From the NCBI RefSeq assembly GCF_003334785.1, contig NZ_QOWV01000007.1: a stretch of 64,000 nucleotides of DNA; one strand, given 5' to 3'. The notes under the pieces are model-generated. The model was not told the DNA's origin. It did no database searches and was given only the letters and a program-made list of their open reading frames with translations. This document shows positions 31,849-34,688 of this stretch, piece by piece; positions within the stretch are counted from its first letter, which is position 1, and each line of letters starts with the position of its first letter. The stretch comes from Escherichia coli. Lineage in GTDB: Bacteria; Pseudomonadota; Gammaproteobacteria; Enterobacterales; Enterobacteriaceae. The translations under genes were made by a program, and so were the position numbers.

Positions 31849-32755
31849 GTTCAAAGAGATGACAGACACACAGTATATTGGCCGCTTCGCCCCCTCTCCT
31901 TCCGGCGAGCTTCATTTTGGCTCTCTGATCGCCGCGCTCGGCAGCTATTTGCAGGCTCGCGCCCGGCAAGGTCGCTGGCTGGTACGCATAGAAGATATCG
32001 ACCCGCCTCGTGAAGTTCCCGGTGCCGCAGAAACTATCCTGCGCCAGCTGGAACATTACGGTCTGCACTGGGACGGCGATGTTCTCTGGCAATCGCAACG
32101 TCACGACGCCTATCGTGAAGCACTCGCCTGGTTACATGAACAAGGACTAAGTTATTACTGCACCTGTACGCGTGCGCGTATTCAAAGCATTGGCGGTATT
32201 TACGACGGTCATTGCCGGGTGTTGCATCATGGACCAGACAACGCCGCAGTGCGTATCCGCCAGCAGCATCCGGTCACGCAATTTACTGACCAGCTGCGCG
32301 GCATTATTCACGCCGACGAAAAACTGGCACGGGAAGATTTTATCATTCATCGCCGTGATGGGTTGTTCGCCTACAACCTGGCTGTTGTGGTTGATGATCA
32401 TTTCCAGGGCGTTACAGAAATAGTGCGTGGGGCTGATCTGATTGAACCAACAGTAAGGCAAATCTCGCTGTACCAGCTTTTTGGCTGGAAAGTGCCAGAT
32501 TACATTCATCTGCCGCTGGCGCTTAATCCACAAGGCGCTAAACTTTCCAAGCAGAATCATGCGCCTGCGTTGCCGAAAGGCGATCCACGCCCGGTACTAA
32601 TCGCGGCACTTCAATTTCTGGGGCAGCAGGCAGAAGCACACTGGCAGGATTTCAGCGTCGAGCAAATCCTTCAGTCAGCCGTCAAAAACTGGCGGCTTAC
32701 CGCCGTGCCCGAGTCGGCAATTGTAAATTCAACATTCTCAAATGCGTCATGCTGA
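31829..32755 (+). CDS. gluQ: Glutamyl-queuosine tRNA(Asp) synthetase
   Basis: 308-aa ORF with class I synthetase-like motifs ([11 protein letters not shown] ... KLSKQ). The start is ambiguous: an alternative ATG at 31859 (MTDTQYIG) gives 298 aa. Confidence 0.88.
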
Positions 32756-32814
32756 GCTATGATTAGCCGCTATTTTTTTGTCCTGAATGATGTTTGACAC
32801 TACCGAGGTGTACT

Positions 32815-34212
32815 ATTTTTACCCGAGTCGCTAATTTTTGCCGCAAGGTGCTAAGCCGCGAGGAAAGCGAGGCTGAACAGGCAGTCGCCCGTCCACAGGT
32901 GACGGTGATCCCGCGTGAGCAGCATGCTATTTCCCGCAAAGATATCAGTGAAAATGCCCTGAAGGTAATGTACAGGCTCAATAAAGCGGGATACGAAGCC
33001 TGGCTGGTTGGCGGCGGCGTGCGCGACCTGTTACTTGGCAAAAAGCCGAAAGATTTTGACGTAACCACTAACGCCACGCCTGAGCAGGTGCGCAAACTGT
33101 TCCGTAACTGCCGCCTGGTGGGTCGCCGTTTCCGTCTGGCTCATGTAATGTTTGGCCCGGAGATTATCGAAGTTGCGACCTTCCGTGGACACCACGAAGG
33201 TAACGTCAGCGACCGCACGACCTCCCAACGCGGGCAAAACGGCATGTTGCTGCGCGACAACATTTTCGGCTCCATCGAAGAAGACGCCCAGCGCCGCGAT
33301 TTCACTATCAACAGCCTGTATTACAGCGTAGCGGATTTTACCGTCCGTGATTACGTTGGCGGCATGAAGGATCTGAAGGACGGCGTTATCCGTCTGATTG
33401 GTAACCCGGAAACGCGCTACCGTGAAGATCCGGTACGTATGCTGCGCGCGGTACGTTTTGCCGCCAAATTGGGTATGCGCATCAGCCCGGAAACCGCAGA
33501 ACCGATCCCTCGCCTCGCTACCCTGCTGAACGATATCCCACCGGCACGCCTGTTTGAAGAATCGCTTAAACTGCTACAAGCGGGCTACGGTTACGAAACC
33601 TATAAGCTGTTGTGTGAATATCATCTGTTCCAGCCGCTGTTCCCGACCATTACCCGCTACTTCACGGAAAATGGCGACAGCCCGATGGAGCGGATCATTG
33701 AACAGGTGCTGAAGAATACCGATACGCGTATCCATAACGATATGCGCGTGAACCCGGCGTTCCTGTTTGCCGCCATGTTCTGGTACCCACTGCTGGAGAC
33801 GGCACAGAAGATCGCCCAGGAAAGCGGCCTGACCTATCACGACGCTTTCGCGCTGGCGATGAACGACGTGCTGGACGAAGCCTGCCGTTCACTGGCAATC
33901 CCGAAACGTCTGACGACATTAACCCGCGATATCTGGCAGTTGCAGTTGCGTATGTCCCGTCGTCAGGGTAAACGCGCATGGAAACTGCTGGAGCATCCTA
34001 AGTTCCGTGCGGCTTATGACCTGTTGGCCTTGCGAGCTGAAGTTGAGCGTAACGCTGAACTGCAGCGTCTGGTGAAATGGTGGGGTGAGTTCCAGGTTTC
34101 CGCGCCACCAGACCAAAAAGGGATGCTCAACGAGCTGGATGAAGAACCGTCACCGCGTCGTCGTACTCGTCGTCCACGCAAACGCGCACCACGTCGTGAG
34201 GGTACCGCATGA
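32815..34212 (+). CDS. pcnB: Poly(A) polymerase I
   Basis: The ORF track starts at TTG 32794; the known 465-aa protein begins at the ATT codon 32815-32817 ([13 protein letters not shown]), a documented non-canonical AUU initiation. Confidence 0.9.
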
Positions 34213-34688
34213 CAGTGGCGTATATTGCCATAGGCAGCAATCTGGCCTCTCCGCTGGAGCAGGTCAATGCTGCCCTGAAAGCATTAGGCGATATCCCTGA
34301 AAGCCACATTCTTACCGTTTCTTCGTTTTACCGCACCCCACCGCTGGGGCCGCAAGATCAACCCGATTACTTAAACGCAGCCGTGGCGCTGGAAACCTCT
34401 CTTGCACCTGAAGAGCTACTCAATCACACACAGCGTATTGAATTGCAGCAAGGTCGCGTCCGCAAAGCTGAACGCTGGGGACCACGCACGCTGGATCTCG
34501 ACATCATGCTGTTTGGTAATGAAGTGATAAATACTGAACGCCTGACCGTTCCGCACTACGATATGAAGAATCGTGGATTTATGCTGTGGCCGCTGTTTGA
34601 AATCGCGCCGGAGTTGGTGTTTCCTGATGGGGAGATGTTGCGTCAAATCTTACATACAAGAGCATTTGACAAATTAAACAAATGGTAA
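34209..34688 (+). CDS. folK: 2-amino-4-hydroxy-6-hydroxymethyldihydropteridine pyrophosphokinase
   Basis: 159-aa [68 protein letters not shown]... ; start overlaps the pcnB stop (ATGA). Confidence 0.96.

Follow-up and report, generated by a model that had tools for sequence, protein, structure and literature searches.

Translation of pcnB, the gene for poly(A) polymerase I (PAP I) of Escherichia coli, starts at an AUU codon, at positions 32815-32817 of the window (the whole stretch of 64,000 nucleotides of E. coli DNA that was analysed, to which all positions refer), and gives a protein of 465 amino acids; we put the probability of this reading at about 0.95. The AUU start is already known: it was shown in 2002 and stands in the reference annotation, and confirming it adds no new biology. 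What the comparative data add is a modest point, namely that selection at the nucleotide level is unusually strong on the ATT, on its Shine-Dalgarno sequence and on the eleven codons that follow, throughout the Enterobacteriaceae and somewhat beyond. The gene matters as one of the two confirmed AUU starts of E. coli, in this case one that limits a toxic enzyme of RNA tailing to a few dozen copies in each cell, and it shows why programs that search for open reading frames misplace such starts. The start is placed here by its position, its frame and its annotation, by the conservation of the ATT and of the Shine-Dalgarno sequence, and by the coding signature seen from the first codon after the ATT onwards; the mutational proof of the AUU start and its effect on expression are taken from the literature.

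The source for the AUU start of pcnB is Binns & Masters 2002 (Mol Microbiol 44:1287), as represented in the papers that cite it (PMC2939334, PMC3561954, PMC5499595, bioRxiv 063800, PMC4447247), of which PMC2939334 names AUU as the codon at which translation really begins. According to PMC3561954, Binns & Masters also had support from phylogeny for an AUU start in other Proteobacteria. Initiation at AUU had been described as rare in the sequence-only reading of this DNA, and the literature bears this out, as infC and pcnB are the only E. coli genes that are confirmed or known to start in this way (bioRxiv 063800, PMC5499595, PMC4447247, PMC4245954, PMC9410913). The AUU codon limits the synthesis of PAP I (PMC3561954, PMC4447247, PMC9764084), which is present at about 30-50 molecules per cell, a low level that is ascribed in part to the AUU (PMC3561954, PMC9764084), and PAP I is toxic when overproduced (PMC2939334, PMC3561954). 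One of these papers (PMC3561954) is inconsistent on the start codon, with "UUG" in the Introduction but "AUU" in the Discussion; thus, the misreading of the start as TTG persists in the literature.

The pcnB gene and its annotation

The list of open reading frames begins the pcnB frame at a TTG, 21 nucleotides (seven codons) before the ATT and in the same frame, which reads TTG ACA CTA CCG AGG TGT ACT ATT TTT ACC CGA GTC GCT AAT TTT TGC CGC AAG GTG. The features discussed are collected in Table 1; codons are counted from the ATT, which is codon 0.

The sequence-only reading had taken the ATT, rather than the TTG, as the known N-terminus of PcnB, and three RefSeq records agree with it, among them both of the records of MG1655, as does Binns & Masters 2002 through the papers that cite it. 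In NZ_CP032667.1 (a PGAP record; protein WP_010723084.1) the annotated start of the pcnB coding sequence maps to window position 32815, and the same is true of NZ_AP027764.1. In the curated record of strain MG1655 (NC_000913.3), pcnB (b0143, 157729..159126) starts on the same ATT. Positions 32600-33200 of the window are 100% identical to MG1655 and to many other strains, and this segment was found in 5425 of the 5426 complete genomes of E. coli. The 66 nucleotides centred on the pcnB start are identical in 5417 of these 5425 genomes, and the single variant that was inspected has a C-to-T change at -2, which lies outside the ATT.

That the gene encodes PAP I, a class II nucleotidyltransferase, is supported by the identity to MG1655, by the gene order gluQ-pcnB-folK and by the poly(A) polymerase chains 3AQK-3AQN of the PDB, which match residues 28-442 of PcnB with an E value of about 1e-284. 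These crystal constructs begin at residue 28 and are without the N-terminus of PcnB. No N-terminal peptide of PcnB and no peak of initiation profiling at pcnB was found in the literature and data retrieved: the text and supplements of the paper on ribosome profiling with tetracycline (TetRP) hold no entry for pcnB, and the only paper found that names both pcnB and retapamulin concerns Staphylococcus aureus (PMC13009471).

The genes in the neighbourhood are sfsA, dksA, gluQ, pcnB, folK and yadN. The stop codon of pcnB and the start codon of folK overlap in the sequence ATGA (34209-34212), an arrangement that is typical of translationally coupled genes.

Table 1. Positions of pcnB, its start codons and neighbouring signals in the window.
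Feature	Position	Strand	Remarks
TAAACT, -10 of published sigma-S promoter pS2	32539..32544	+	PMC2939334
sigma-70 promoter-like site TTCTCA-17-TATGAT	32735..32763	+	promoter scan; candidate for published major promoter pB
mechanical ORF of pcnB	32794..34212	+	472 aa, TTG start (ORF list)
TTG, mechanical start	32794..32796	+	first 3 nt of TTGACA; no Shine-Dalgarno-like sequence upstream
Shine-Dalgarno GAGGTG of pcnB	32805..32810	+	GAGG ends 6 nt before ATT; invariant
pcnB CDS (poly(A) polymerase I)	32815..34212	+	465 codons + stop; RefSeq annotation, PDB matches
ATT (AUU) initiation codon of pcnB	32815..32817	+	in frame, RefSeq CDS start, conserved
codons 1-11 of pcnB	32818..32850	+	amino acids invariant; synonymous constraint strongest in gene
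GTG, codon 11, rival start	32848..32850	+	first canonical in-frame codon downstream of ATT
ATG, codon 51, possible minor isoform start	32968..32970	+	probable start '+1(b)' of Liu & Parkinson 1989
folK	34209..34688	+	ATG overlaps pcnB stop

Conservation in Enterobacteriaceae

The comparative set consisted of one genome per species and comprised the pcnB loci of 80 Enterobacteriaceae, with protein identities of 86-100%. The codon aligned with the ATT of the window is ATT in every one of the 80 species. The chance of finding an in-frame ATT within seven codons in any one sequence is roughly 10%, which is unremarkable; the significance of this ATT lies not in its mere presence but in its being conserved (80/80) where the internal isoleucine codons vary. 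In a gapped codon alignment of the 80 species, there are 276 columns in which the amino acid is invariant and its codon is degenerate, and a single codon is used in 13 of them. Among the fourteen columns with an invariant isoleucine, only that of the ATT keeps to one codon; the 13 internal ones use two or three. Judged by these alignments, the ATT is conserved beyond what would be expected of an internal isoleucine codon.

Where coding begins can be seen from the pattern of change on either side of the ATT. In codons 1-10 the amino acids are invariant, and all 52 minor-allele calls are synonymous and fall at third positions, none being at positions 1 or 2. At codon positions -5 to -8, which lie upstream of the Shine-Dalgarno sequence, all three positions vary, in-frame stop codons are present and there is no coding pattern. 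Thus, coding begins at the ATT or immediately after it, since change is confined to third positions downstream and has no coding pattern upstream.

The hexamer at -10 to -5 is GAGGTG in all 80 species, and upstream of it the sequences diverge through both substitutions and insertions or deletions. GAGGTG can form six contiguous base pairs with the CACCUC at the 3′ end of 16S rRNA. The ribosome binding site of pcnB has been called "poor" in several papers (PMC3561954, PMC9764084). In the sequence, it has a Shine-Dalgarno match of six bases at a good spacing, and this match is absolutely conserved; if the site is poor, the Shine-Dalgarno sequence itself gives no obvious reason for it.

More distant relatives

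For orthologues beyond the Enterobacteriaceae, representatives of clusters at 50% identity were used, and the DNA was retrieved for three of them, with protein identities of 67%, 62% and 55%. The closest (CP043324.1, a genome of 5.0 Mb, 67% identity) has GAGGTG-tacc-ATT. In the second (LR217737.1, a reduced genome of 1.08 Mb, 62% identity), the sequence reads GAGGTG-tcct-ATT TTT ACC CGA GT, and the coding sequence is annotated in that genome as beginning on the ATT. In the third, a contig from a metagenome (55% identity), GAGGA is followed after seven nucleotides by ATT ATT ACA AAA GTC; the call of pcnB on this contig has been extended far upstream because the gene is without a canonical start there. 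Among relatives with 42-54% identity, gene calls, which are predictions rather than experiments, place the start at a methionine (or leucine) 0-5 residues from the column of the ATT, and a similar hydrophobic and basic N-terminal motif follows it. These comparisons show the N-terminus that is defined by the ATT to be the normal one for the PcnB family.

In the reduced genome (589-640 of the retrieved segment), the GAGGTG, the spacer length of four nucleotides, the ATT and the next 14 nucleotides (TTTACCCGAGT...) are nearly unchanged.

Other possible start codons

If translation started at the TTG at 32794, the product would be a protein of 472 amino acids and the ATT would be an ordinary internal isoleucine codon. 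No canonical start precedes the TTG in the open reading frame, and UUG is the codon named as the start in the Introduction of PMC3561954; nevertheless, this start is highly improbable. The TTG lacks a Shine-Dalgarno-like sequence ahead of it, the RefSeq records of pcnB do not use it, and in the columns between it and the Shine-Dalgarno sequence all three codon positions vary, stop codons included. Among the 80 species, the distance from the nearest upstream in-frame stop to the ATT ranges from 5 to 59 codons, and in four of them this stop is at -5 or -6, between the position of the TTG and the ATT. A TTG at codon -7 is found in only 26 of the 80 species, and in 43 the frame holds no ATG, GTG or TTG at all from the nearest upstream stop up to the ATT; thus, the TTG cannot be a conserved start. 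As the sequence-only reading had proposed, the TTG is the start of the mechanically derived reading frame and nothing else. The opposite displacement, a start at the GTG at 32848, would give a protein of 454 amino acids, and the conservation upstream of it would then be regulatory instead of coding. This GTG is present at codon 11 in 80/80 species, and the stretch that precedes it is almost invariant in nucleotide sequence, so that a non-coding element is possible in principle. However, the codons before the GTG evolve as coding sequence, with synonymous changes at third positions only, and distant genomes keep the N-terminal peptide despite changes in the nucleotides. Furthermore, the GTG is preceded by TTTTGCCGYAAR, in which there is no Shine-Dalgarno sequence, whereas the invariant GAGGTG is spaced correctly for the ATT and lies 37 nucleotides from the GTG. 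A start at this GTG can be given hardly any credence.

A different kind of proposal is that, besides the protein started at the AUU, a shorter isoform is made as a secondary product from the ATG at 32968 (Met52) when transcription comes from pS1, an internal sigma-S promoter. An earlier start for pcnB, designated '+1(b)' by Liu & Parkinson 1989, is among the points discussed in PMC2939334, and we infer that it corresponds to this ATG. In that paper, pS1 was active in vitro and also in vivo in stationary-phase cells lacking ppGpp (ppGpp0), and two bands were seen repeatedly on Western blots with antibodies to PAP I, which suggested a second, shorter isoform. In the sequence, there is an AAGG four nucleotides upstream of the ATG, and the region 10-35 nucleotides before it contains a block whose synonymous sites are invariant. 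Against this, pS1 was silent in wild-type cells, and the authors themselves called the short isoform unproven (PMC2939334). Codon 51 is ATG in only 23 of the 80 species and encodes leucine (CTC, CTT or CTG) in the other 57. The ATG was therefore rejected as a conserved start, and a conserved role for it is disfavoured because it is poorly conserved; a minor product of this kind in E. coli is unlikely. The AUU start of the full-length protein is part of this proposal too.

Two observations concern the same part of the gene. The block at 32933-32957 (TCC CGC AAA GAT ATC AGT GAA AAT) is a second run of invariant synonymous sites in pcnB, and it may coincide with pS1. Codon 28 (32899-32901), which reads GTG in the window and GTA in one other E. 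coli strain, is ATG in 73 of the 80 species; it is a canonical codon in frame, and gene callers could take the ATG for the start in those 73 genomes.

Synonymous constraint in the Shine-Dalgarno sequence and codons 0-11

Across the 80 species, synonymous sites hardly change over the 46 nucleotides that run from the Shine-Dalgarno sequence through codon 11 (32805-32850), and no other part of the gene is so strongly constrained at such sites. Codons 0-11 hold seven of the 13 degenerate codons of pcnB that are invariant as codons; outside them, six of about 264 degenerate codons with an invariant amino acid are codon-invariant. Minor-allele calls in codons 1-8 total five, compared with 42 in the next-lowest window elsewhere in pcnB. 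Even the rare arginine codon CGA at 32824-32826 is invariant in the 80 species, and most of the stretch is kept in the reduced genome of 1.08 Mb. No description of this synonymous constraint over 32805-32850 was found in the literature examined.

The simplest reading of the constraint is that a weak start codon places stronger selection on every other determinant of initiation. The alternative is that 32805-32850 is a specific cis-element, for example the site of a trans-acting regulator or an initiation region dedicated to AUU, rather than the generic consequence of a weak start; we regard this as doubtful. A search of Rfam with positions 32500-33100 gave no match at E values up to 1. When folded as a single sequence, the initiation region was no better than shuffled sequences (z = +1.29), and a consensus fold of 24 diverse sequences was weak (-7.3 kcal/mol) and had no compensatory pairs. 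The consensus fold includes a small hairpin in which the Shine-Dalgarno sequence pairs with codons 1-3 and the AUU is in the loop; because all of its positions are invariant, this hairpin is beyond the reach of covariation.

An open reading frame of 15 codons at 32787-32834, out of frame with pcnB, overlaps its Shine-Dalgarno sequence and ATT, and is probably not functional. It was considered as a cause of the constraint and rejected: its ATG is present in 42 of the 80 species, and its length varies.

Initiation at AUU

As sequence, annotation and conservation show, the GAGGUG, with its GAGG ending six nucleotides upstream, positions the 30S subunit such that the AUU is the codon in the P site, where it is read as methionine by the initiator tRNA. 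Initiation factor 3 (IF3) would discriminate against the AUU of pcnB as it does for infC, and translation of pcnB should therefore rise when IF3 is limiting. The AUU being a poor start codon, synthesis of PAP I is kept very low, and the cell is thereby spared the toxic effects of too much polyadenylation. As the first canonical triplet after the upstream in-frame stop, the TTG at 32794 lies inside the untranslated leader. No figure for the size of the effect of AUU compared with AUG at pcnB was found in the literature examined.

In relation to the E. coli pcnB of Binns & Masters 2002, there is no difference to report, as the gene and the codon are the same and this is the described case itself. 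A close comparison is with infC, the gene for IF3: both genes have a non-canonical AUU start that limits expression. In infC, the AUU is the sensor of an autoregulatory loop, in which IF3 discriminates against the start codon of its own gene (PMC9410913), whereas for pcnB we infer a dependence on IF3, and no feedback loop involving PAP I was found for it in the literature retrieved. A further likeness is to three genes of S. aureus, cvfC1, ccpN and infC, which start at AUU or AUA and likewise combine a weak start codon with a conserved and strong Shine-Dalgarno sequence that directs the selection of the start (PMC13009471). The non-canonical starts of S. aureus gave about 10% of the expression of matching reporters with AUG mutations in poor medium (PMC13009471). 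These cases differ from that of pcnB in gene and organism, and they were mapped by ribosome profiling with retapamulin; no map of that kind was found for pcnB in the literature retrieved.

Promoters upstream of pcnB

The TTG at 32794 opens a perfect -35 consensus, TTGACA (32794-32799), a hexamer conserved in some genera, Escherichia and Citrobacter among them. As the -35 element of a promoter it was rejected, the promoter scan having given no suitably spaced -10.

The published promoters provide a link between the numbering of the literature and that of the window. According to PMC2939334, the -10 of pS2 is TAAACT and the transcription start sites, numbered from the ATT, are -263 to -265. Position 32815 minus 264 is 32551, which is seven nucleotides after the TAAACT of the window; thus, the ATT of that paper is the ATT of the window.

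The sigma-70 promoter-like site TTCTCA-17-TATGAT is a candidate for the published promoter pB, to which it probably corresponds. Its -10, TATGAT, begins three nucleotides after the stop codon of gluQ (TGA, 32753-32755), and it is kept in 70 of the 80 species, at 36-72 nucleotides from the ATT.
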